From NCBI GenBank assembly GCA_029261035.1, contig JAJDCD010000023.1, positions 301,126-365,125 on the forward strand: 64,000 bases of DNA, read 5' to 3'. The translations under genes and the position numbers were made by a program. Below the pieces are notes generated by a model. The model was not told where the DNA came from, ran no database searches, and saw nothing but the letters and a program-made list of their open reading frames with translations. The stretch is from Candidatus Omnitrophota bacterium. Its GTDB lineage: Bacteria; Omnitrophota; Omnitrophia; Omnitrophales; JACROU01. Position 1 is the first letter of the stretch, and each line of letters opens with the position of its first letter. Positions 4,029-45,427 of the stretch are shown piece after piece.

Positions 4029-4739
4029 ATGAAAACTATTTTTATTCGTTTCTCTTTATTTGTTCTTCCCTTAATTTTTCTTACCACAGGTTGTTCCTCT
4101 ACAAAATCTCAGTTGGAATATGAAAATACACTTCTTAAAGGACGCATCTCTCAGTTAGAGCGTTTACATCAAGATGACCTTAGAAGAACCAAGATTGATA
4201 AGGAATTACAAATTAATTCGTTAAAGTCTAGTAACCGTGGTTTGATGGATAAAGCATCCGGACTTGAGTTATCCAGAGATGAGTTAGCACGATCTTTGGC
4301 TCAAGAAATAGCGGGTTATCAAGCTAAATTGGAGCTTTCCAACCGAGGGCTCGTAGTTACTTTCTTACAAGATATCCTATTTGACTCTGGAAAAGCTGAG
4401 ATTAAAGAGGGTGCTTTTTCTGCCCTTTCTAATGTGGCGGGAGTTATTCGAGATAAAGCAAAAGACCATATGTTGGTTATCGAAGGATATACAGACAACA
4501 CTCCAATCAGGCATTCTAATTGGAAAACAAATTGGGATTTGTCTTCAGCAAGAGCGTTGAGTGTTTTTCATTATTTTGTTGAAAAAGAATCTATCGATCC
4601 TAGTCGCTTATCTGTGATGGGTAATGGCTCTAATCGTCCTCTAGCTTCGAATGATGATGCCGCAGGACGAAAACAAAATCGACGTGTTGAAATCGTAATT
4701 TTTCCTGAAAAAATAAAGCGCGTTGCAGCAGTAAGATAA
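4029..4739 (+). CDS. OmpA/MotB-family peptidoglycan-associated lipoprotein (Pal-like) with a coiled-coil linker
   Basis: Lipobox (LTTGCSS). C-terminal OmpA-like domain (GYTDNTP...SSARALSV...NRRVEIVIF). Confidence 0.75.
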   Translation: MKTIFIRFSLFVLPLIFLTTGCSSTKSQLEYENTLLKGRISQLERLHQDDLRRTKIDKELQINSLKSSNRGLMDKASGLELSRDELARSLAQEIAGYQAKLELSNRGLVVTFLQDILFDSGKAEIKEGAFSALSNVAGVIRDKAKDHMLVIEGYTDNTPIRHSNWKTNWDLSSARALSVFHYFVEKESIDPSRLSVMGNGSNRPLASNDDAAGRKQNRRVEIVIFPEKIKRVAAVR

Positions 4740-4768: not shown

Positions 4769-4885
4769 CTGTCATTGCGAGACTTCAACAATAAGGTCGC
4801 GGTAATCTCATACATCGGAAAGATAGAAGCAAAACCGTTTGCATGAGATTGCCACGGCCCTTATGCAGTAGCCTCGCAATGACGG
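4769..4885. repeat. Family A nested inverted-repeat element (about 115 bp, MITE/REP-like)
   Basis: Outer arms GTCATTGCGAG / CTCGCAATGAC. Inner arms GCGGTAATCTCAT / ATGAGATTGCCACGGC. Confidence 0.8.
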
Positions 4886-4952
4886 ATGCTCATGCTGCTA
4901 AAATAATGGATAGGCGGGTTTATTTAAACCCGCCTTTTTCTGTTGAGGCCTT

Positions 4953-6814: not shown

Positions 6815-6899
6815 ATGTCATCCTGAGTGTAAGGAAGGATCTAAGACAAATTTTAAAGTCATTATAGATTTCTCGTCGTTATAATCCTCAAAATGACAA
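6815..6899. repeat. Family B element
   Basis: TGTCATCCTGAG ... GGAAGGATCT ... GATTTCTCGTCG ... CTCAAAATGACA. Confidence 0.75.
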
Positions 6900-17160: not shown

Positions 17161-18273
17161 TTAATTTTTAACTTTCGATCTTTTCTGGCAATCTTCGATA
17201 TTTTTTAAGGGACAGAAACTTTGGATGATAGCGTCACTGCAGCTGTAGTGATAAGGGTAGGAGTGGAAGTAAGCAGAGGTGATGATGTTGTTTAATTCCT
17301 TGTCCGAAAGTCCTACGCGTTGTTTGTGATTCCATGAGTGCATTAATTTTTCTGAGTCTTCTTGGTTTAAACCATTTCTTCTAAATTCTGATACTAATCG
17401 AATAGCACAATTATTACGAAAACCTTTTTCAATAGACGAATGTAAAATTTGCAACATTCCTGGACATAAAAAAACTTCGGGGTCTTTACCTAACTTTGCC
17501 TTGATGGGATAGCGAAAAGGTTTCTTTGTGATTTGCCGCACAACTCTTTTAGATCGGTAGAAGATGCGGGAAAGCGTTGGGTTTTCATCGATATGTTTTA
17601 TTCTAGAGACGAGACCCGAATCGTCCGTAAAATGAAGTTCGTGAGGGTAGGTTGCTTTTTCTAAAATGTCTTTAGTAGAAAATTGAAATAGTTCTTCGGG
17701 AAGTAGTTGAACTTTATATTTCTGAGTTTTTTGGTTTTTGGTGTTTGGCAAACGAAGCAAACGAACTTTATCTTTGATGGTAAGATCAAAAATATTTTGC
17801 TCTATTTCAGGCATTTGTAATAAGATTTCTTTTCTAAATTGAGAGAAAGTAATATGTAGATTTTTTGACGGGGTGATGTGTCCTAAGACCCTTGTATCTA
17901 ACATAAAATGAAAACCTTTAGCCCCACTAAAGTAAATTAAACAATCCTCTGCATTAAGGCCGCAATGAGAAAAGAGCATGTTGGCAAAAATACGTGCTTG
18001 ATCTAATGCTTTTTCCAAATCTTGAGAATCTAAATCAAAGGCTAGAAAAGTGGCCCATACTTTCCCGTCATATCCGCCAATCGAAGGACGTCCTTTGTTG
18101 AGATGCATTTCCATATAAGTGAGTATTTCTGGAGGAAAGAAAAAGCAAGATGCGTGACATTCATAATTTTTATAAGATTGAATAAGGTGAGGGATTTCCT
18201 GTAAGGGTACGATGTGATTTCGAAACCCCTTTTGGTGCTGTGCGGCAAATTCCACCAAATGATAGCGTCGCAT
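17161..18273 (-). CDS. Archaeo-eukaryotic-type primase-polymerase (Prim-Pol/AEP) with a PriCT-like C-terminal domain
   Basis: AEP motif I FLAFDLD, motif II FSGAKGFHFMLD, motif III DLTIKDKVRLLRLPNTKN. C-terminal Cys...FRNNCAIRLVSEFRRNGLNQEDSEKLMHSW is PriCT-1-like. Confidence 0.65.
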   Translation of the reverse strand: MRRYHLVEFAAQHQKGFRNHIVPLQEIPHLIQSYKNYECHASCFFFPPEILTYMEMHLNKGRPSIGGYDGKVWATFLAFDLDSQDLEKALDQARIFANMLFSHCGLNAEDCLIYFSGAKGFHFMLDTRVLGHITPSKNLHITFSQFRKEILLQMPEIEQNIFDLTIKDKVRLLRLPNTKNQKTQKYKVQLLPEELFQFSTKDILEKATYPHELHFTDDSGLVSRIKHIDENPTLSRIFYRSKRVVRQITKKPFRYPIKAKLGKDPEVFLCPGMLQILHSSIEKGFRNNCAIRLVSEFRRNGLNQEDSEKLMHSWNHKQRVGLSDKELNNIITSAYFHSYPYHYSCSDAIIQSFCPLKNIEDCQKRSKVKN

Positions 18274-18453: not shown

Positions 18454-18518
18454 GACAATTATTGGCATCGAGCCAATAATTGTTATAGGGTAACAGTATC
18501 GTCACATGTGTGACGATG
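18454..18518. repeat. H1 (CATCGAG-loop hairpin) plus H2' (CGTCACATGTGTGACG) modules
   Basis: ATTATTGGCATCGAGCCAATAAT ... ATCGTCACATGTGTGACGAT. Confidence 0.7.
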
Positions 18519-18725
18519 CTCTTTTGATGGTTTGAATAGCCTGGGCCCTTTATGCATACAGGCAGGCAAGGGTGTTTGGCCTAAATACCCTCTCGGCTTT
18601 ACAATCTGGTAGGGGGAGAGTATACTTATTTGTAAAGAACTGTAACTCTTTATTTGGTGATATGTTAACGAGTTGCTGGGTGATATGAAAGGATTAGGGG
18701 TAGATTTTTTACCCTCATAAACTAT

Positions 18726-19186: not shown

Positions 19187-19285
19187 TTGTCTTTGCGAGG
19201 CTAGTAACAAAAAGGGCCACGGCAATCTCAGGTTTTCTATACCTGAGATTGCCGCGGCCCTTTTGTTTAATGACTCGCAATGACT
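19187..19285. repeat. Family A element
   Basis: TTTGCGAGGC ... CCACGGCAATCTCAGG ... CTGAGATTGCCGCGG ... CTCGCAATGAC. It abuts the fabI stop. Confidence 0.8.
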
Positions 19286-19293
19286 GATTCTAA

Positions 19294-20100
19294 CTACATT
19301 CCCATAATGGAATAACCAGAATCTACGTACAAAATATTTCCTGTAATCCCACGGGATAAATTACTCGCTAAAAATAAAGCGGTGTCACCCACTTCGCTTG
19401 CTTCGGTGTTTCTTTTAAGAGGAGCTTTTTCTCTAACAACCTTCAACATTTCGGTGAATCCAGAGATGCCTCTAGCCGCTAGTGTGTTAATTGGGCCTGC
19501 AGAAATTCCGTTAACACGAATGTTTTTAGCGCCCAAGTCACTCGCAAGATAACGAATGCTTGCTTCAAGAGCCGCTTTAGCAACTCCCATTACATTGTAT
19601 CGAGGTACTACAGCAACACTTCCAAGATAGGTTAACGCAACAATGCTTCCACCTTCGGTCATAAGAGGAACGGCATGTTTTGAGATGGCTGTTAAAGAGT
19701 AGGCGCTGATATCATGAGCAAGGTGAAACCCGTCTCGTGAAGTGCTGACGAAATCTGTTTCCAAATCTTCCTTTTTAGCAAATGCAACGCAATGTACTAG
19801 GATATCAATTTGACCAAAGCTATTTTTAAGCTCGTCAAACACAGCTTTAATTTCATCATCGTTAGTTACATCACAAGGAAGTACTTGTGAGCCTTCTAGT
19901 GTGTCTGCTAAATCACGGACATTCTTTTCGATTCTTTCGCCTTGGAAAGTGAAAGCTATTTGAGCTCCTTGAGACGCTAAAGATTGTGCGATGGCCCAAG
20001 CAATGCTTCTTTTGTTGGCAACACCGAAAATGACCGCTTTTTTACCTTTCAATAACATGGTTTCTCCTTTATTTTGAGTTTCAGTCGTTGTTTCACTCAT
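19294..20100 (-). CDS. fabI: Enoyl-[acyl-carrier-protein] reductase (NADH), FabI
   Basis: SDR fold with LKGKKAVIFGVANKRSIAWAIAQ and the FabI-type Y...K active-site spacing. The start may be the internal M at MLLKGKK. Confidence 0.85.
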   Translation of the reverse strand: MSETTTETQNKGETMLLKGKKAVIFGVANKRSIAWAIAQSLASQGAQIAFTFQGERIEKNVRDLADTLEGSQVLPCDVTNDDEIKAVFDELKNSFGQIDILVHCVAFAKKEDLETDFVSTSRDGFHLAHDISAYSLTAISKHAVPLMTEGGSIVALTYLGSVAVVPRYNVMGVAKAALEASIRYLASDLGAKNIRVNGISAGPINTLAARGISGFTEMLKVVREKAPLKRNTEASEVGDTALFLASNLSRGITGNILYVDSGYSIMGM

Positions 20101-20215: not shown

Positions 20216-20258
20216 TTAGCGGATAGCGTTTAGCGTAGAGCGGATAGGAAAATCTTTG
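20216..20258. repeat. Family F direct-repeat module (AGCGGATAGCGT...TAGAGCG...ATAGGAAAA)
   Basis: TTAGCGGATAGCGTTTAGCGTAGAGCGGATAGGAAAATCTTTGTC. A second copy lies at 25538-25586. Confidence 0.65.
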
Positions 20259-20345
20259 TCATCCCCGGCTTGATCGGGGATCCAGTGTCTTTGTTGTATC
20301 TGCTTACAAAATAAAACCTTTTGTCTATCTGGATCCCGCCATGCC
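20258..20345. repeat. Family B-variant (TTTGTCATCCCCGG type) composite hairpins upstream of ispH
   Basis: TTTGTCATCCCCGGCTTGATCGGGGATCC ... GGATCCCGCC...GCGGGATGAGAGG. It overlaps the spurious 5' extension of the ispH ORF. Confidence 0.7.
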
Positions 20346-24527: not shown

Positions 24528-24565
24528 GGTGCGGCTCCTATGTTTATTAAGCGAGATTTTTTAAT

Positions 24566-24647
24566 GCTTACAGCCTGCCCTTTGCCTAGGGGACACACAC
24601 TTTTGTCACAATTACTGTGTAATGGTTACAAAAGTCTATGTCCCCGA
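24566..24647. repeat. Family D palindromic element (about 85 bp)
   Basis: TTACAGCCTGCCCTTTGCCTAGGGGACACACACTTTTGTCACAATTACTGTGTAATGGTTACAAAAGTCTATGTCCCCG. Confidence 0.8.
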
Positions 24648-24660
24648 CTTCCTTTTCGCT

Positions 24661-25586: not shown

Positions 25587-25628
25587 TGAGATTGTCACGG
25601 CTCATATATCTTTGCCTCACAATGACAA
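25584..25628. repeat. Family A half-element (right half only)
   Basis: TCTGAGATTGTCACGGCTC ... GCCTCACAATGACA. Confidence 0.6.
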
Positions 25629-25638
25629 TGTTGAGGGG

Positions 25639-25690
25639 TTGTCATTCCCGACTGGGTTGATTGTCATCCTAGAGCGAAGCGAAGGATCTG
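25639..25690. repeat. Family B-variant fragments
   Basis: GTCATTCCCGACTGGG ... TTGTCATCCTAGAGCGAAGCGAAGGATCTG. Confidence 0.6.
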
Positions 25691-26320: not shown

Positions 26321-26424
26321 TTGGGTCCTTTTTAAGCCTTGCTTTTAGAGATAAGTTCTTTGATAATAACGGCACGCAGGTGGCTGTCACTTTAGTGACT
26401 GTCACCGTTTATTTAAGTATTTTA

Positions 26425-26532
26425 ATGGGTACAGCCTTTCCTTTGTCTAGGAGACACGCACTTTTGTCACAATTGCTGCCCGCCAACAAGGCGGCGGACA
26501 AGCGTAATGGTTCCAAAAGTCCACGTCCCCGG
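26425..26532. repeat. Family D element with a CCGCCAACAAGGCGGCGG insertion in the loop
   Basis: GGGTACAGCCTTTCCTTTGTCTAGGAGACACGCACTTTTGTCACAATTGCTGCCCGCCAACAAGGCGGCGGACAAGCGTAATGGTTCCAAAAGTCCACGTCCCCGG. Confidence 0.8.
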
Positions 26533-26575
26533 TTTTGCTCTTCATTAAAGCTTTTATTTAAAAAAAGGAAATAAT

Positions 26576-29437: not shown

Positions 29438-29556
29438 TTTGTCATTGCGAGGCATTTGATAATTGAGCCGTGGCAATCTAGAATACTGTAATTACAAGAA
29501 TACACCCTTTGTCTGAGATTGCTGCGGCTCTTTATGTTTACGCCTCGCAATGACGG
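29438..29556. repeat. Family A element
   Basis: GTCATTGCGAGGC ... GCCGTGGCAATCTAG ... TCTGAGATTGCTGCGGC ... GCCTCGCAATGACGG. Confidence 0.85.
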
Positions 29557-29677: not shown

Positions 29678-29729
29678 AGTTATGTGCCAGGCCTGCCATT
29701 GAGGGGCCTGGCACATCGGGTACATAACT
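29678..29729. repeat. Family E palindrome
   Basis: AGTTATGTGCCAGGCCTGCCATTGAGGGGCCTGGCACATCGGGTACATAACT. Confidence 0.75.
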
Positions 29730-33344: not shown

Positions 33345-33452
33345 AGTCATTGCGAGGCAAAGACAAAATAGCCGTGGCAATCCCAGAAGTAAGGAGATTT
33401 ATCTTTTATCTGAGATTGCCACGGCGTATGAGTCGGATGCCTCGAAATGACA
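33345..33452. repeat. Family A element
   Basis: GTCATTGCGAGGC ... GCCGTGGCAATCCCAG ... TCTGAGATTGCCACGGC ... GCCTCGAAATGAC. Confidence 0.85.
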
Positions 33453-34860: not shown

Positions 34861-34871
34861 TGTTGAAGTGG

Positions 34872-34977
34872 GTGCTCAGAGAATGTTCTCCGGCGCTCAG
34901 ACAGCACAAAAGTGACTGTCACCTAGGGTGACTATCACTTTTGTGAACTCGCTGCGGAGAACATTCTCTGAGCACTT
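34872..34977. repeat. Family C palindromic element (about 100 bp)
   Basis: GTGCTCAGAGAATGTTCTCCGGCGCTCAGACAGCACAAAAGTGACTGTCACC TAGG GTGACTATCACTTTTGTGAACTCGCTGCGGAGAACATTCTCTGAGCAC. Confidence 0.9.
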
Positions 34978-35007
34978 CTATTATTCGCTGGGGGTGTGTT
35001 AGGGCGT

Positions 35008-35081
35008 TGAAAACAAGAACGCCATCGAGGGTTCTTGTTTTCTTGGCATAAGGTGTTTCGTTATTGTGTAAATAACGAAAC
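35008..35081. repeat. H1 plus H2 modules downstream of a C element
   Basis: GAAAACAAGAACGCCATCGAGGGTTCTTGTTTTC ... GTTTCGTTATTGTGTAAATAACGAAAC. Confidence 0.8.
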
Positions 35082-35174
35082 GCGTTTTTGTTTTTGGAGT
35101 TTAGATTTGTTTCAGGGATAAAGGCGCTTGTTATTTGGAAGAGATTGTTAGGATTTAGTGAAGACAAAGAATAT

Positions 35175-35216
35175 TTGTCATTGCGATACGGCTCTTTGGT
35201 TGTGCCTCGCAATGGT
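35175..35216. repeat. Family A remnant (outer arms only)
   Basis: TTGTCATTGCGATACGG ... GCCTCGCAATGG. Confidence 0.55.
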
Positions 35217-37625: not shown

Positions 37626-37718
37626 TTGTCATTCTGAGCATAGCGAAGAATCTCAGACAAATAGCATATCATCCTAATCCATTTAGATTCTTCGTCGTTA
37701 CACTCCTCAGAATGACAA
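37626..37718. repeat. Family B element
   Basis: TTGTCATTCTGAGC ... GCGAAGAATCTC ... AGATTCTTCGTCG ... CTCAGAATGACAA. Confidence 0.85.
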
Positions 37719-39139: not shown

Positions 39140-39173
39140 TAGTGTGCCTGGTCTTTAGACCTGGCACACACTA
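39140..39173. repeat. Family E palindrome
   Basis: TAGTGTGCCTGGTCTTTAGACCTGGCACACACTA. Confidence 0.8.
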
Positions 39174-40603: not shown

Positions 40604-40624
40604 GGGGGTTTATAGTTGGGTTGC

Positions 40625-40710
40625 GGCTAGAGAATGTTCCCTGGCGCTCAGACAGCACAAAAATTGAGAAGCGATTTTTGTGAACTCGCGGCGGGGAACA
40701 TTCTCTAGCC
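40625..40710. repeat. Family C element
   Basis: GGCTAGAGAATGTTCCCTGGCGCTCAGACAGCACAAAAATTG ... TTTTTGTGAACTCGCGGCGGGGAACATTCTCTAGCC. Confidence 0.85.
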
Positions 40711-40742
40711 TTTTAAGTTATAAACTTTGGGTGGGGAGTGTT

Positions 40743-40815
40743 GAAAGCCGGAGCTGCATCGAGCAGCTCCGGCTTTCTTGGTTTAGGGTGTTTCGTTATT
40801 GTGTAAATAACGAAA
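40743..40815. repeat. H1 plus H2 modules
   Basis: GAAAGCCGGAGCTGCATCGAGCAGCTCCGGCTTTC ... GTTTCGTTATTGTGTAAATAACGAAAC. Confidence 0.8.
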
Positions 40816-40907
40816 CTCGTTTTTATTTTTTTGGTTTGGACTTGTTGTAGGGATAAAGGCATTTGTTGAATAGAGGGGTTGGTTTAGGATTTATTAAAGA
40901 TAAAGAA

Positions 40908-40995
40908 TGTTGTCATTCCCGAAATCTTTTGTCGGGAATCCAGGTTGTTTTTGTTTGTGGATCCCCGATAAAAACATTCGGGGATGACAGCCTTA
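40908..40995. repeat. Family B-variant nested hairpins
   Basis: TGTCATTCCCGAAATCTTTTGTCGGGAATCC ... GGATCCCCGATAAAAACATTCGGGGATGACAGC. Confidence 0.7.
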
Positions 40996-40996
40996 C

Positions 40997-43900
40997 CTAT
41001 GCCGCTTGGGCGATTTGTCGTTGGGTGAAGGCTTGGGTGAAGAGTTGTTGTAGGTGGTCGCTTAGCTGTAAGATCCATCGGTCTTTGGCTTTTTTCCAGA
41101 TGCCGAAGAGGTCGCGTTTTCCTTGGAAGAGGAATTCGATGGCTGCTGTGGGAGCGTATAAACTTTGTTCTACACTTAAGATTTCTGTGGTGCTTGCGCT
41201 TACTTCTGTTTGACCCAGTAAGTGGATTGCGTGGGTATTTGTGTTTCGTTTTAAGCGGTGTGCGTAGTCGTTGAGGTGGTCTTTGCTTCCGAATCGAGCG
41301 TTTCCTTCTAATTCAGGAAGCGGGCTCCAGTCGTTTGTCTCTTTGAGAATGAGGATATCTCTTTTCTTTTGTTTGAGATGGTAGTTTAATTCTTCTAGTT
41401 CTGAAGGACTCATTTGTCTTAAGGTTTCGACTGAAATGATAAAGGTTATTTTGTTTTGAAGTTGATCTGCTCGGTTAAAAATTTGAGAAACCTTTCCGGA
41501 GTCTTTTAGTTTCCATGGAAGAGTAATTCCTAAACTAGACCCTTCAGACTTTTCTTTTTCTATTTCTATTTTCTTTATTACTTTTGAAAATTCTTTTCTC
41601 CATGTGGATGTGCCATGAGAAGAGACAAGGCCATACCCGAGAAGCATATTATCTCTTTCCATATCTTTAAGCAGTCTAAAATTTTTAGGATTTCTTATAT
41701 CCTCATCTGTTATAACAAGAAAAAAAGGAGGGGAGTCTATAGTTCTTTTGAATAACGTGGCAAGATCGTAAACGGTTGTATCTGAGGTTAGAAAGCCCGT
41801 AGATACCCCCGTATGAAATAAGGATATGACCAAGTCAAAGGAATCGCTTTTCATGGCTTTGTTGGCATAAACAGCGCTTCCTTTTTCAGCAATTTCAAAA
41901 TCTATTTGTAGATCCGAGCTAATGCGGTCTAAGCCTCTTTTCACTTTTTCTCGTAACTCTTGTTTAACGCCAACAAGAAGAATTTTGTAGCTGGGTTTTT
42001 TCTCTGAGGCATTTCCTAAACTATTTGCATCAGATTTAGGGGGATTTTTTGTTTGTGCATTTGAGCCCCATTTAGGTTTTTTTATCTTTTCAAGGTCATC
42101 AAGAATGGATTTCATTCGACCTGAATCCAGGTTGTGTTTGTGCATGTGGTCGTGATGAGAAGGGGATTCTTCAATTTGAGCTAATTTTTTTTGAAATGCC
42201 TGGATGTCTAGACCTGTCTTTTTTGGACTTTCTGGAGTAAGTATGATTGTTGGAATCTTAATCTCATCATTATCTAAGGTGGATAAAAGGGCATCAGCTG
42301 TGGTGTTCGTTTTAGTCCACCATCCTGTTGTTCCTGTAACAAAATAAGAAATAACAAGGTTGAACGGTGCAGAGCTTCCGTTTGCTTTTTTTATTGCTGT
42401 AACTGCTTTTTTATTCCCTGTTACAGTGACGATTTCAAATTCTCGTCCCAAAATTTGTCCCAACTTTCCAAGTTTTTCTACTATAAAGGGAGTGTCTGTG
42501 TTAAGCCCAACAACTAAAATTTTTTTAACTTGACCTAAACTAGAGGCTTTAATAACTTTGTGCACCTTTACCGTGTTTAAAAATACGATTTTGGTTGCGA
42601 TGGCATCGGGTGTAGAGCGGTGCATACGTGTCTGAACACCGAAAGTGGCAAGTAAAGCGCCGAGATTATGGCTGATGCCGGGATAGAAAGAACGAGAAGA
42701 GCTAAGGGTGTCATAGGCAAAAAAACGGGGTTTGTTTTTTGCTAAGCCGTCATCGGGATTTTCGATTTTAGAAAAGGGAGTTGGAAGTTCAGTTCCTTGG
42801 TTGACGACTTGAATACGAAAAGGGCCTAACCCAAAATGATCCATTTCTCTTTGTATCAGCAGAGAGTCATAAGGGGCGTTGTGCATTACGAGCAATGATT
42901 TTTTGTAACGTTTTAAAAATTCGAGTATGTCTGGAAAAGCCTTTTCCGCTGGAATTCCTTTTTCCAAAATTTCTTTTTTTGTGATCCCTGTAAACTCTTC
43001 AATGTTGAAAGGCATATTGAAATTACCATCGGGTTTAATCAAGAGGGATACGCGCTCAACTTCTTGGAGTCCTTTATAGGCAATCGCGGTAAGCTCTATA
43101 ATTCTTGATTCTCTAATATTAAGGCCAGTGCTTTCTAAATCGATGACTACGTATTCAAGGTCTCGAAGTGTTTCATCTAAAAGAAAATCAGGAAGCGTTT
43201 TGTTTTCAAGTTGAGCTTTATAGTAAGCAAGTTCGATTTCGTTGCTAGGGTCTCTTTGAAGTTTTTCCATAAAGGCTCTCTTGAGAATCGTCATTTTCGC
43301 TAAGAGAAGGCCTTCCACACGAGAGGGAGAGAGTTTCTGAAGGGTATTTCGATATAGTTCTTCAAAGACCAAAGGAGGTAAATCCTTAGGAGGGCTGACC
43401 ATGTTAAATAGGCGGACAACACTGTGGTCACTGACCGGTCTTGTTCGTGGTTTTCTTTCATGCTCTGACCATCGAATGATTTTAGTTTCATTCCCTGGAA
43501 GAACTAAAACGGAATGTTGTTTATTCGTTTCTTTTGGAGTGGAGGGCTTTATTTCAACTTCTTGGACTTGGGGGTCAGATTCAGGAACGAATACAGGAGT
43601 TTTTTCTGATGAGGGTTCTTCTTGAAGAGAAGCTTTTAAAAGGCGATTGATGGCCGCAAATTGTTTTTGTATTTCAACAATGCCTACATTGTCCACGCCT
43701 TTAATGTTTTGCTTGATATAAGGGATGTTGGGGACAAGGATGTTGCCAAACATAATCCCTTGAATCATTTGCCCAATTAAAGGAAAGCCAGCTTCTTTAA
43801 TTTTATTTGAGAAACGGCTTTGAATTCCTAATTCTTCTATTGGCAGATAATGAATTGCTTCAAGTTCTCCTTTTTTTGCAGCACTTTTAAGTTTGCCACC

Positions 43901-45427
43901 TAAAGGTTTACCTAGACTGGCTGCTTTTGTTTGTGCTTGTCTCCAAGCTTGCTGAAACTGTAAGCCTTTGGAATTTAAAAGCACAAATTCCTGAATGGAA
44001 CGAAGTGCTTTTGGAGAGGAAAGCGTTCTAGGGGCTGAAAGTGCAGCTTGCTCTGTAATGGTCCAATCGTCGTTGAGGCGCTTAGAATAAAATCGGTTTT
44101 CTGAAATTTGAGAGATGCGAGGGGAGATGGTGATAAAGGAAAAACCTTTTTCTTCTAATTTTTGTTCTACAAACTCTGTGTGAAAGCCGCCAGTGACAAG
44201 CACGCAGCTTAGTTTGTCGTTGGGAGTTTTGTTTTGTTCTACTTGTACGCGTTTGAAAAACTGATTCATCATGATGCTATCTCTAAGACGTGCTTTTTGG
44301 TAAAAATCATGAACGGCTAAAACAGCATTGTCTGACAAAGATTCTAAAAGAGGAGAGTCTGGAGAGATAAGGTCTAAATCTTTGCGTGTTGCTTTGAGTT
44401 GTAGTGTGTTTTTAATCGATCGAAATGTTTCTAGTTGGTCAAAGAACAGTTGATCTTCTTCTGGATCTAAATAACTTTCTTTTATGTTTTTAACTAAACG
44501 CTCCAGCTCTTCAAAAAGGTGTTGTCCTTGAATTTGTTTTAGTTTTTGTGTCAATTCCAGCTCGCTTCTAAGCTGAGGGGCATTGGCGAGGTCATCTTCT
44601 GAAATCTGTTCTCCTAATTGTTTTGCTTCTCCTAGAGTTAAGCCTAAGGAGCTGAGTTCTTGATCTAACTTTCCTTTATCTGCAAAAGCTTGCAATTGTT
44701 GTATCTTGCGAAATAAGGTTAAGTTCCGGTAGGAAGAGCTGGCGATGCTTTTGCTTTCTGCGTCAGCGAGAACGGACTCTATATAAGTTATCAGATCTAT
44801 TTTTTCTGCTTCAAATTTTCTTTCGTTGTCATAAAGAGAATTCAGTTTATCCGAGAAACGACTCTTCCTTTCTTTTTTTAATTGTTGTTCTTTCTGAATG
44901 ATGAACTGCATGATATCTGCTTGAAAAGAGCGAGCGTTGAAATACGCTTGTCTGTTTTGATTATATACTTCAGCATCTTCGAGACCAAAAAAAGAATAAT
45001 TAGAATCTGTGGTAGCAGCTAAGCTAACCCCATCCATAAGAAGATTGTCTAAGAGAAAACCGGCGATTGTTTCAAAGTTTTTATTTTTAGATAAGATTTC
45101 TAATGAGTCGGTGTAAAGTTCTCCAGAAGCTCCTTCAGCCATAATCAGATTGGTACCGAGTCGAGAGTGGAGGAAATCAATGATGTTAAAGATATTGCGA
45201 TGAGCTTCGGGTTGATCATGAGCCTCTTGGATATGAAATATGAGAGGAGCGCCTGGTTTTGAAACATGCATTTTTTTAATCGAACCCCATTCTGTAGGAA
45301 TGGGAGGAAAGGAAAAGCCGCCAACAGAAAGAGTGGCTGCAGGAGCTAGAGGAAGCTGTAAACCCATCATGGATATCATGATGAGAGAACAAGTAAGTTT
45401 TTTAAGTAGTTGTGACTTTTTGATCAT
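40997..45427 (-). CDS. Giant (about 1477 aa) secreted multidomain protein with an embedded DnaQ-like DEDDh 3'-5' exonuclease domain, paralog of 11304-17150
   Basis: Track ORF is 40997-45679. The probable start is the ATG at 45427 (MIKKSQLLKK... signal peptide), because upstream codons run through a C-family repeat. N-module motifs are LIFHIQEAHDQPEA and LVTGGFHTEFV. The exonuclease motifs Exo I VVIDLESTGL, Exo II LLVMHNAPYDSLL and Exo III MHRSTPDAIAT sit at about 42578-43160. Two internal roughly 90-aa repeats. C-terminus ...QAFTQRQIAQAA. Confidence 0.8.
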   Translation of the reverse strand: MIKKSQLLKKLTCSLIMISMMGLQLPLAPAATLSVGGFSFPPIPTEWGSIKKMHVSKPGAPLIFHIQEAHDQPEAHRNIFNIIDFLHSRLGTNLIMAEGASGELYTDSLEILSKNKNFETIAGFLLDNLLMDGVSLAATTDSNYSFFGLEDAEVYNQNRQAYFNARSFQADIMQFIIQKEQQLKKERKSRFSDKLNSLYDNERKFEAEKIDLITYIESVLADAESKSIASSSYRNLTLFRKIQQLQAFADKGKLDQELSSLGLTLGEAKQLGEQISEDDLANAPQLRSELELTQKLKQIQGQHLFEELERLVKNIKESYLDPEEDQLFFDQLETFRSIKNTLQLKATRKDLDLISPDSPLLESLSDNAVLAVHDFYQKARLRDSIMMNQFFKRVQVEQNKTPNDKLSCVLVTGGFHTEFVEQKLEEKGFSFITISPRISQISENRFYSKRLNDDWTITEQAALSAPRTLSSPKALRSIQEFVLLNSKGLQFQQAWRQAQTKAASLGKPLGGKLKSAAKKGELEAIHYLPIEELGIQSRFSNKIKEAGFPLIGQMIQGIMFGNILVPNIPYIKQNIKGVDNVGIVEIQKQFAAINRLLKASLQEEPSSEKTPVFVPESDPQVQEVEIKPSTPKETNKQHSVLVLPGNETKIIRWSEHERKPRTRPVSDHSVVRLFNMVSPPKDLPPLVFEELYRNTLQKLSPSRVEGLLLAKMTILKRAFMEKLQRDPSNEIELAYYKAQLENKTLPDFLLDETLRDLEYVVIDLESTGLNIRESRIIELTAIAYKGLQEVERVSLLIKPDGNFNMPFNIEEFTGITKKEILEKGIPAEKAFPDILEFLKRYKKSLLVMHNAPYDSLLIQREMDHFGLGPFRIQVVNQGTELPTPFSKIENPDDGLAKNKPRFFAYDTLSSSRSFYPGISHNLGALLATFGVQTRMHRSTPDAIATKIVFLNTVKVHKVIKASSLGQVKKILVVGLNTDTPFIVEKLGKLGQILGREFEIVTVTGNKKAVTAIKKANGSSAPFNLVISYFVTGTTGWWTKTNTTADALLSTLDNDEIKIPTIILTPESPKKTGLDIQAFQKKLAQIEESPSHHDHMHKHNLDSGRMKSILDDLEKIKKPKWGSNAQTKNPPKSDANSLGNASEKKPSYKILLVGVKQELREKVKRGLDRISSDLQIDFEIAEKGSAVYANKAMKSDSFDLVISLFHTGVSTGFLTSDTTVYDLATLFKRTIDSPPFFLVITDEDIRNPKNFRLLKDMERDNMLLGYGLVSSHGTSTWRKEFSKVIKKIEIEKEKSEGSSLGITLPWKLKDSGKVSQIFNRADQLQNKITFIISVETLRQMSPSELEELNYHLKQKKRDILILKETNDWSPLPELEGNARFGSKDHLNDYAHRLKRNTNTHAIHLLGQTEVSASTTEILSVEQSLYAPTAAIEFLFQGKRDLFGIWKKAKDRWILQLSDHLQQLFTQAFTQRQIAQAA

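Follow-up and report, generated by a model that had tools for sequence, protein, structure and literature searches.

Introduction

CGTC-tagged repetitive extragenic palindromes (REPs) are hairpins that carry a CGTC tag, often TGTC, followed by a stem that starts with AT and by a short, unpaired 3′ tail with the consensus CCA (Di Nocera, De Gregorio & Rocco 2013, BMC Genomics 14:522; PMC3733652). They occur mostly as head-to-head dimers, have been identified with the dRS3 repeats of Neisseria and the RPE-4 and RPE-6 repeats of Rickettsia, and were reported from five phyla, none of them in the PVC group, without an associated transposase (PMC3733652). Here, we analyze a 64-kb stretch of contig JAJDCD010000023.1 (positions 301,126–365,125; the whole stretch is referred to as the window), the host of which is an Omnitrophota bacterium; stem-loop repeats of the REP type saturate its intergenic DNA. 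The element under study, a palindrome at window positions 4771–4883, belongs to a set of repeats (families A and B and their short variants) that fits the superfamily of CGTC/TGTC-tagged REPs, also called Ssn-related motifs (SRMs).

NTS (CGTCATTCCCGCGMAVGCGGGAATCYRG), the longer of the Neisseria forms, is a substrate that SsnA, a small nuclease of the GIY-YIG type, binds and cuts (Chenal et al. 2025, Nat Commun 16:2388; PMC11893778). SsnA acts on NTS/SRM hairpins solely as single-stranded DNA (ssDNA) and on a single strand only; nucleotides immediately 5′ of the stem matter for cutting, and the C immediately 3′ matters for binding (PMC11893778). Genes for Ssn proteins are typically flanked by their own SRMs, and Ssn is encoded in 81% of genomes that contain more than 200 SRMs (PMC11893778).

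Families A and B are built from one hairpin unit

The initial annotation of this DNA reported a high density of intergenic palindromes. Indeed, 22 of the 24 intergenic gaps of 100 bp or more in the window contain at least one repeated hairpin. The element at 4771–4883 (A1) is an imperfect palindrome of 113 nt (GTCATTGCGAG...GGTAATCTCA / TGAGATTGCCACGG...CTCGCAATGAC) in which two TGTC-tagged units with the stem ATTGC/GCAAT are joined head to head. As ssDNA, A1 is predicted to fold at -28.4 kcal/mol (z = -5.65), and none of 200 shuffled sequences gave an equally good predicted fold. The sequence GTCATTGCGAG is matched 11 times in the window at up to one mismatch (0.58 expected) and a two-part family A pattern four times (0 expected); this pattern search confirmed the reported four full and two partial copies of A. 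The five reported copies of family B also stand, and its variants, of which four had been reported, were located at 20257–20285, 25638–25688, and 40912–40988.

A and B had been counted separately among at least six distinct families, A to F. The repeats themselves are real, and two further small families, G and H, can be added. However, A and B are not independent families: together with the variants, they represent subtypes of a single architecture. The shared unit consists of an unpaired (T/C)GTC tag, a stem initiated by AT, a variable inner hairpin, a closing AT, and an unpaired C; two inverted units form a foldback of ~70–115 nt. A descriptor of this layout, GTC-AT-XYZ-(6–42 nt)-rc(XYZ)-AT-C, where rc denotes the reverse complement, retrieves 18 units from the window compared with 1.5 from shuffled sequence. 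The stem triplets (XYZ) found are TGC, TCT, CCT, CCC, TCC, and TGT; A carries TGC, B carries TCT or CCT, and the variants carry CCC or TCC. All 18 units begin with (T/C/A)GTC, mostly TGTC. A C follows the stem in every unit, though the descriptor itself demands it, and the tails read CTCA, CTAG, CCAG, or CCCA. Most units are arranged head to head with their tags outward (A1–A4, B1–B4, and the dimer at 40912–40988), some are single, and the pair at 63872–63945 has its tags inward. In front of perfect hairpins initiated by AT, GTC is also found more often than any other trinucleotide (5 of 57; background, 0.85%). This signal in front of perfect 7-bp AT-hairpins is weak because the stems of A and B are interrupted.

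These features place A and B as a longer variant of the CGTC-tagged REP kind in a new host lineage. As in the published families, the units have an unpaired CGTC/TGTC tag, a stem whose first two pairs are A-T and T-A, and perhaps a short, unpaired tail that begins with C; head-to-head dimers predominate, several subfamilies coexist in one genome, copies occur inside genes, and no transposase lies adjacent. The differences concern size and distribution. A/B units measure ~37 nt and combine an outer stem of 5 bp and an internal loop with either a second hairpin or an AT-rich interior, and a stem of 8–9 bp with a loop of 4–5 nt is approximated by the short variants at 20257–20285 and 40912–40988 only. 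Omnitrophota lie outside the five phyla listed in the original description, and the A-type unit is far more widely distributed than published for the class (see below). The likeness to Rickettsia RPEs, first drawn as an analogy, turns out to be closer than that, since the superfamily that A and B fit includes RPE-4, RPE-6, and dRS3 (PMC3733652).

The A-type unit recurs across bacterial phyla

We scanned one genome per species (GTDB) for GTCATTGCGAG N15–25 GGCAATC, a query that fixes both flanks of the A-type unit and leaves its interior free to vary. At least 120 loci matched; taxon counts from the genome and metagenome collections are lower bounds, and the following figures refer to the matches listed. 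These carry labels of more than 20 phylum-level groups, among them Alpha-, Beta-, Gamma-, and Deltaproteobacteria, Campylobacterota, Planctomycetota, Verrucomicrobiota, Bacillota, Bacteroidota, Chloroflexota, Nitrospirota, Armatimonadota, Spirochaetota, Elusimicrobia, Actinomycetota, Gemmatimonadota, Melainabacteria, Margulisbacteria, Dadabacteria, and many Patescibacteria. Although 136 of the 146 interiors are distinct, a perfect stem of 5 bp or more is present in 47% of interiors, compared with 3.5% of shuffled ones. GTC is preceded by T in 57% and by C in 34% of the 146 units from other phyla, and GGCAATC is preceded by CGY in 92% of them. An inverted partner lies within 120 nt of 178 of 333 units in other phyla, which form head-to-head pairs. 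The same loci also contain 100 units with other stem triplets (TCC, CGC, TCT, CCC, CCT) against 17.6 expected. The co-occurring triplets include those that define family B of the window, and mixed dimers of A- and B-type units occur, for example at a locus of Alistipes (L090). Clustering of the proteins encoded beside the 146 units from other phyla revealed no recurrent family, as one would expect of dispersed, non-autonomous repeats. Two repeat "families" that seemed lineage-specific are in this way tied to a pan-bacterial hairpin unit, the cognate enzyme class of which was identified only in 2025.

Host, relative, and turnover of the repeats

The density of repeats had originally been judged on the premise of a chlamydial host. 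This premise requires correction to Omnitrophota: the host is not a member of the Chlamydiaceae because all named homologues of the window's MnmE (49–59% identity) are from "Candidatus Omnitrophica" and because the gene content, which includes purH, folC, hemA/C/D, panB, and giant open reading frames (ORFs), is likewise unfit for that family. The closest named homologue of FabI (77% identity) is also from Omnitrophica. Further genes in the window are pabB/trpE, folD, recQ, and two-component systems, and ORFs of 1476–1948 amino acids lack known domains. The G+C content is 36–42%, GC skew is positive over the full length of the window, and ~3/4 of the genes lie on the + strand. Omnitrophota are ultra-small bacteria with giant genes and are probably host-dependent.

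The nearest genome available is the metagenomic contig Ga0315338_1000003 (2,174,956 bp, 39% G+C; referred to as the relative). Its proteins share 80% (FabI), 75% (MnmE), and 50% (a lipase-maturation-factor-like protein) identity with those of the window, and synteny spans window positions 1–47 kb. At loci of the relative chosen by protein, we found ~3 units of the superfamily per 10 kb, A-type dimers among them, two of which are 90% identical. An AT-rich, lineage-specific pattern of the A-type arm has 13 exact matches on the relative's contig, spread from 0.10 to 2.15 Mb, and also matches eight other metagenomic contigs of 35–39% G+C. This dispersal in the relative refutes local duplication for family A and supports the original view of genome-wide families.

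Occupancy by repeats differs between the window and the relative at nearly all orthologous gaps. The sites of B2 and B3 are empty in the relative, where the gaps measure 26 bp and 2 bp, respectively, and the sites of A4 and B4 contain unrelated palindromes. Conversely, four sites that are empty in the window are filled in the relative: a dimer lies between the genes for LolA and arginase, a single unit between those for arginase and PvlArgDC, and dimers between the PriCT gene and the giant gene and between the aminotransferase gene and purH, which overlap in the window. The repeats therefore turn over, with gains and losses at different sites after the window genome and the relative split. The active or recently active mobilization proposed in the initial annotation is not supported by the copies. 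Pairwise identities are 75–82% within family A and 59–87% within family B; full-length copies within families of the window as a whole are 59–93% identical, and no pair reaches 95%.

The relative also shows that A-type repeats can land in-frame inside genes. One of its giant ORFs (L123 13946–20710, − strand, >2250 amino acids) contains three in-frame repeat features, namely an A-type unit (19587–19627), a (CGGAGTC)n run (19935–19968), and a D-like hairpin (20000–20051). The A-type unit is translated as 'VIARQKTSEPWQSL', which coincides with gaps in the alignment of the window orthologue (11304–17150). In-frame landing in genes was reportedly first described for Rickettsia RPEs, by Ogata et al. 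in 2000 and 2002. The in-frame insertion into a protein-coding gene, with the typical translation 'VIAR...', thus recalls RPEs and indicates that RPE-like protein remodeling is not confined to Rickettsiales; RPE-4 and RPE-6 are themselves CGTC repeats (PMC3733652). The likeness is drawn with these two and not with RPE-1 or other long RPE families; moreover, the host is not an alphaproteobacterium, and in-frame copies are absent from the window itself.

A candidate link to Ssn nucleases

Small GIY-YIG ORFs in other phyla (L114 4132–4557 and L019 6533–6934; PF01541, E ~3e-16) have A-type units on both sides. The long A-type unit is therefore part of the protein–repeat association known for the SRMs. 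The tag-hairpin-C layout is also shared between the Neisseria NTS/SRM (CGTCAT-TCCCGC...GCGGGA-ATC-YRG) and the A-type unit (TGTCAT-TGC...GCA-ATC-TCA), as is the occurrence of hundreds of copies in host-associated bacteria. The initial annotation had looked to an IS200/IS605 TnpA or a RAYT as the cognate enzyme. A GIY-YIG nuclease of the Ssn family fits better (PMC11893778), given that CGTC repeats are reported never to flank genes for RAYT or other tyrosine transposases (PMC3733652).

These comparisons suggest a mechanism in which A/B units would act as ssDNA hairpins while DNA is replicated, repaired, or taken up. Elsewhere in the genome, a gene would encode a small GIY-YIG nuclease with a single domain, a member of the Ssn family, which would bind the hairpin and nick beside the tag. 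Either this nuclease–hairpin interaction or an ancestral mobile cassette of the order repeat–ssn–repeat would spread and maintain the repeats, while selection would preserve the hairpin as the stem sequence drifts. On balance, we think it probable that the lineage encodes an Ssn nuclease outside the window and that its interaction with the hairpins accounts for how A and B are maintained and spread. As the best explanation of the data as a whole, we favor with moderate confidence CGTC/TGTC-tagged REPs with an Ssn mechanism for A and B and additional hairpin families beside them.

Several observations weigh against this account. GIY-YIG motif searches were negative in the window and in ~210 kb of the relative and related metagenome contigs; in contrast to the NTS/SRM case, an ssn gene was thus seen neither in the window nor in the portion of the relative's genome that was covered (~10%). 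The structure of the units also departs from precedent: in those of A and B, the outer stem is 5 bp long and is combined with an internal loop and an interior of 15–25 nt, whereas described CGTC families have stems of 8–9 bp and loops of 4–5 nt. The published SRM pattern, HGTCWYN(0-2)YYVSBRHN(0-5)WNVSBRGN(0-2)RNCYNB, fits one of the 18 window units, the short variant at 20257–20285 (0.13 matches in simulated sequence), and leaves the A/B units unmatched. In Neisseria, Ssn was shown to cut DNA and to limit transformation, not to copy repeats, and nothing in the present data points to a role in transformation. Nothing ties families C–H, described below, to Ssn. Finally, the pan-bacterial query was built from the window's own motif, and labels of metagenome-assembled genomes, which may contain errors, were taken as given.

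Should the Ssn nuclease of this lineage be found, Omnitrophota would join Rickettsia, Wolbachia, and Neisseria among repeat-rich, host-dependent bacteria. With the longer A-type unit, the range of Ssn recognition sites would then be wider than now known, which would be of practical interest for ssDNA tools.

Additional hairpin families and a composite unit

Family C is a long hairpin with an invariant, asymmetric internal loop (CTCAGACAG/AACTC); in its outer stem, 17 of 33 pairs have undergone compensatory double changes across five copies. A covariance model recovered all seven reported copies with scores of 24–99 bits. C1 (18341–18421, + strand; 77 bits) is such a hairpin with the CTCAGACAG/AACTC loop. 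C2 (34876–34972, +), C3 (40627–40709, +; directly 3′ of mnmE), and C5 (47776–47872, +) begin the three composite units described below; an H hairpin is nested in the apical loop of C2, and another is nested in C5. C4 (45549–45627, +) is diverged (57 bits) and lies upstream of the probable true start of the − strand gene for a 1476-amino acid protein. C6 (54458–54540, +) lies directly 3′ of a cysG-N-like gene. C7 (59083–59200, +; 24 bits) is a chimera, the left half of which is C and the right half of which matches the D2 interior in alignment. Judged by its pairwise identities (77–93%), C is the youngest family, yet it contains no near-identical pair. The covariance model had no match in 236 kb of related sequence, and a structured C pattern had none in the metagenome collection.

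The four reported copies of family D, hairpins of the form GGGGACAYGCACTTTTG...CAAAAGTCCATGTCCCC, were confirmed in the window at 24554–24656 (D1, between two − strand genes), 26415–26535 (D2), 51266–51368 (D3), and 59238–59340 (D4), all on the + strand. Their pairwise identities are 78–86%, and the D core had no match in viral contigs. A 16-nt module, CCGCCGTCTTGTTGGG, occurs at 9648(+), 26482(−), and 59170(−), and is thus shared by B, D, and C elements as originally reported; it is nested at 26476–26502 in the loop of D2 and forms part of the D2-derived half of C7. The core CACTTTTGT[GC]ACA had been considered common to C and D. It is present in the D copies and C7, but not in C at large, as ordinary C copies read CACTTTTGTGAAC. 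The mosaic description is nonetheless fair: small hairpins nest in larger loops (H in C2, C5, and C7; the 16-nt module in B3 and D2), and C7 is a C/D hybrid.

Family E, a GC-rich hairpin (ATGTGCCAGGCC...GGCCTGGCACAT), was found at three sites, not the five originally counted: E1 at 29682–29716, E2 at 39142–39169 (3′ of folC), and E3 at 59958–59984 (3′ of the cyclophilin gene). Family F has three copies instead of two. The two extra small families are G (CGTCACATGTGTGACG) and H (GGTGACTGTCAC...GTGACTGTCACC). A region on the + strand downstream of C1 (18455–18519) combines a hairpin with a CATCGAG loop (18455–18483), the fourth of its kind, with the G hairpin CGTCACATGTGTGACG (18496–18519); further copies of G lie at 45709–45731 and 54631–54652. 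H occurs free-standing at 26379–26406 as the hairpin GGTGGCTGTCAC-TTTA-GTGACTGTCACC.

The remaining CATCGAG-loop hairpins and all three F hairpins belong to a composite of ~290 nt that is present in three + strand copies (34866–35158, 40615–40893, and 47765–48066). In each copy, a C hairpin is followed by a CATCGAG-loop hairpin, an F hairpin and T-run, and the conserved segment GGGATAAAGGC...TTAGGATTTA. The tail of the first copy (34973–35158) has its CATCGAG-loop hairpin at 35009–35042 and its F hairpin at 35053–35083; the corresponding positions are 40743–40777 and 40790–40816 in the second tail (40710–40893), and 47915–47947 and 47959–47989 in the third (47873–48066). The tails are 78–80% identical in pairwise comparisons. 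The stems below the CATCGAG loop covary fully, the loop itself is invariant, and the F hairpin with its T-run is terminator-like in all three composites. It is tempting to speculate, although we consider it doubtful, that the composite is an undescribed multicopy structured RNA or else a mobile element, hairpin-borne and strand-specific, whose insertion sites are the loops of other hairpins.

Searches of 157 kb of the relative gave no copy of C, F, G, or the 16-nt module and a single one of D, inside the giant ORF; H is common to both genomes. The composite was found in the window genome only and seems to postdate the split from the relative, whose MnmE is 75% identical. Potentially new parts of the repeat complement are the lineage-specific families and the C/CATCGAG/F composite only; the remainder is a well-documented case of an ordinary phenomenon. 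C–H behave as structure-constrained hairpin repeats, some of them lineage-specific.

All seven C, four D, and three F copies (18341–59340) lie on the + strand, including C4 and D1, which are located between − strand genes. Judging by the GC skew, the + strand is presumably the leading strand. The orientation of C and D hints at a strand-specific process that may follow replication over transcription; the two discordant cases are too few to decide.

The relative has a hairpin family of its own (AGGGACGGTTCTAGA...TCTAGAACCGTCCCT; eight copies in 157 kb), which is absent from the window, and short tandem runs of CGGAGTC/CGAACTC in several intergenic gaps. These repeats were located at L141 6404–6440, L141 13068–13102, and L163 11654–11690, and on L153, L157, and L162.

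Alternative explanations

Classical MITEs (small transposable elements with inverted repeats) of the Correia/NEMIS type are deletion derivatives of insertion sequences (ISs) that are moved as double-stranded DNA by a DDE transposase recognizing terminal inverted repeats. The window repeats resemble these and other bacterial MITEs in that they are small, palindromic, intergenic, abundant, and co-transcribed with their neighbors; they have inverted-repeat ends (TGTCAT...ATGACA), and their site occupancy differs between relatives. A MITE origin is nevertheless highly unlikely, and the likeness to Correia elements drawn in the initial annotation does not hold. The flanks of A1–A4 show no duplication of TA or any other target site, and IS-derived terminal repeats are absent: the ends are self-folding units instead of transposase-binding repeats. 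Every arm forms a hairpin of its own, the interior of which is variable yet paired; this fits recognition of structure over sequence. Single units and tags-inward pairs occur as well. No transposase or IS is encoded in the window, no protein family recurs beside the 146 listed units from other phyla, and the A-type unit is present in more than 20 phylum-level groups among the matches listed. The unit is not known from any IS family. We consider it very unlikely, too, that the repeats are REPINs, that is, doublets of REPs copied by a RAYT (a domesticated tyrosine (HUH/Y1) transposase of the IS200/IS605 type that is present as a single gene copy). In REPINs, the inverted doublets of a short hairpin, the long foldback, the compensatory changes that keep the stem, and the vertical persistence with turnover resemble what we observe (Bertels & Rainey 2011; PMC3116915). 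The restriction of 7/7 C and 4/4 D copies to the + strand, two of them between − strand genes, would also fit a strand-specific ssDNA mechanism. However, the defining GTAG tag is absent from the unit ends, which carry (T/C)GTC, the window contains neither a RAYT nor any other Y1/HUH gene, and the reported absence of CGTC repeats beside such genes (PMC3733652) argues in the same direction.

The repeats might instead be mainly transcript elements, such as stabilizers of 3′ untranslated regions, terminators, or a multicopy small RNA, that are selected at the RNA level and multiplied by recombination without a dedicated enzyme. A1 lies between the stop codon of the OmpA-family gene (4739) and a predicted canonical intrinsic terminator (4912–4935), and thus within the 3′ untranslated region without being the terminator itself; repeats within predicted 3′ untranslated regions, such as A1, are also transcribed. 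The terminator-like F hairpin of all three composites, the CATCGAG loop and the C internal loop, both invariant on covarying stems, and the location of all C, D, and F copies on the gene-rich + strand are likewise consistent with this explanation. It is rather unlikely all the same. No Rfam family matches the repeats, all divergent, promoter-side gaps are filled as well, C4 and D1 run antisense to the genes around them, and the A/B dimers are symmetric and therefore alike on both strands. Orthologous genes of the relative have no element or a different one, which argues against gene-specific regulation, and units occur in-frame inside coding sequence. Least of all do the data suggest a local phenomenon, in which a segmental duplication or an island, not genome-wide families, would account for the repeats. 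The three composites do lie within 13 kb (at 34.9, 40.6, and 47.8 kb), but elements extend across the whole 64 kb amid housekeeping genes syntenic with the relative, A-type units are spread over 2 Mb of the relative, and the same unit recurs in hundreds of unrelated genomes. We give this possibility almost no credence; it is already contradicted for A and B.

Individual copies and other features of the window

The other full copies of family A are head-to-head dimers: A2 (19189–19284) between the convergent ACT-domain gene and fabI, A3 (29441–29554) in a divergent intergenic region, and A4 (33346–33451) 3′ of hflC. A2 is also present in Logan contigs (L001/L002). The half element at 25590–25626 (− strand) is a single A-type unit (GTCATTGTGAG...GACAATC), and the partial copy at 35177–35215 is a short A-like palindrome, GTCATTGCGAT...CCTCGCAATGG, without inner arms. 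Among the B elements, B1 (1734–1802) is a head-to-head dimer of TGTC-tagged units with the stems ATCCT/AGGAT and ATTCT/AGAAT. B2 (6816–6898), B3 (9624–9717), and B4 (37627–37717, 3′ of purH) share its head-to-head arrangement; the 16-nt module, here a GC hairpin (9642–9668), is nested in the left unit of B3. B5 (63872–63945) consists of the two B-type units with inward tags. As for the variants, 20257–20285 (+) is a short canonical unit (TGTCATCCCCGGCTTGATCGGGGATCCAG), 25638–25688 (+) contains two short degenerate units (TGTCATTCCCGA..., GTCATCCTAGAGCGAAGCGAAGGATC), and 40912–40988 is a head-to-head dimer of short units (GTCATTCCCGA...TCGGGAATC / GTCATCCCCGA...TCGGGGATC), a subtype also found in the relative.

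No transposase, HUH protein, or GIY-YIG protein is encoded in the window. Readings of the repeats as CRISPR repeats, attC sites of integrons, dif sites, or IS ends were rejected on grounds of sequence and architecture. A search of the window against Rfam 15 returned nothing at gathering thresholds and four chance-level matches at E ≤ 1, none of them on the repeats, and a literature search with the literal sequences GTCATTGCGAG and CTCGCAATGAC found unrelated primers only. The 17-mer core of C had 14 matches in viral contigs, all of them chance matches inside coding sequence.

A primase-like gene at 17161–18273 (−), which encodes PriCT_1 and weak DNA_primase_S domains, had hinted at a mobile element. 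It is probably a resident gene, because both relatives have it, conserved, at that position. Three window genes are missing from the syntenic relative: those for the OmpA-family protein (4029–4739), a GcvT-like aminomethyltransferase (8161–9201), and the 1476-amino acid protein (40997–45427), which carries an RNase_T exonuclease domain. Repeat elements border each of the three. The relative, for its part, encodes a protein of 6671 amino acids with many kinase domains (L141 1–6205). A unique, nearly perfect GC-rich palindrome of 58 nt (CCTCAAACAGGCCCGGGCC...GGCCCGGGCCAGTTTGAGG) lies at 11118–11175, 3′ of the aminopeptidase P gene; in the orthologous gap of the relative, a short-unit dimer takes its place.

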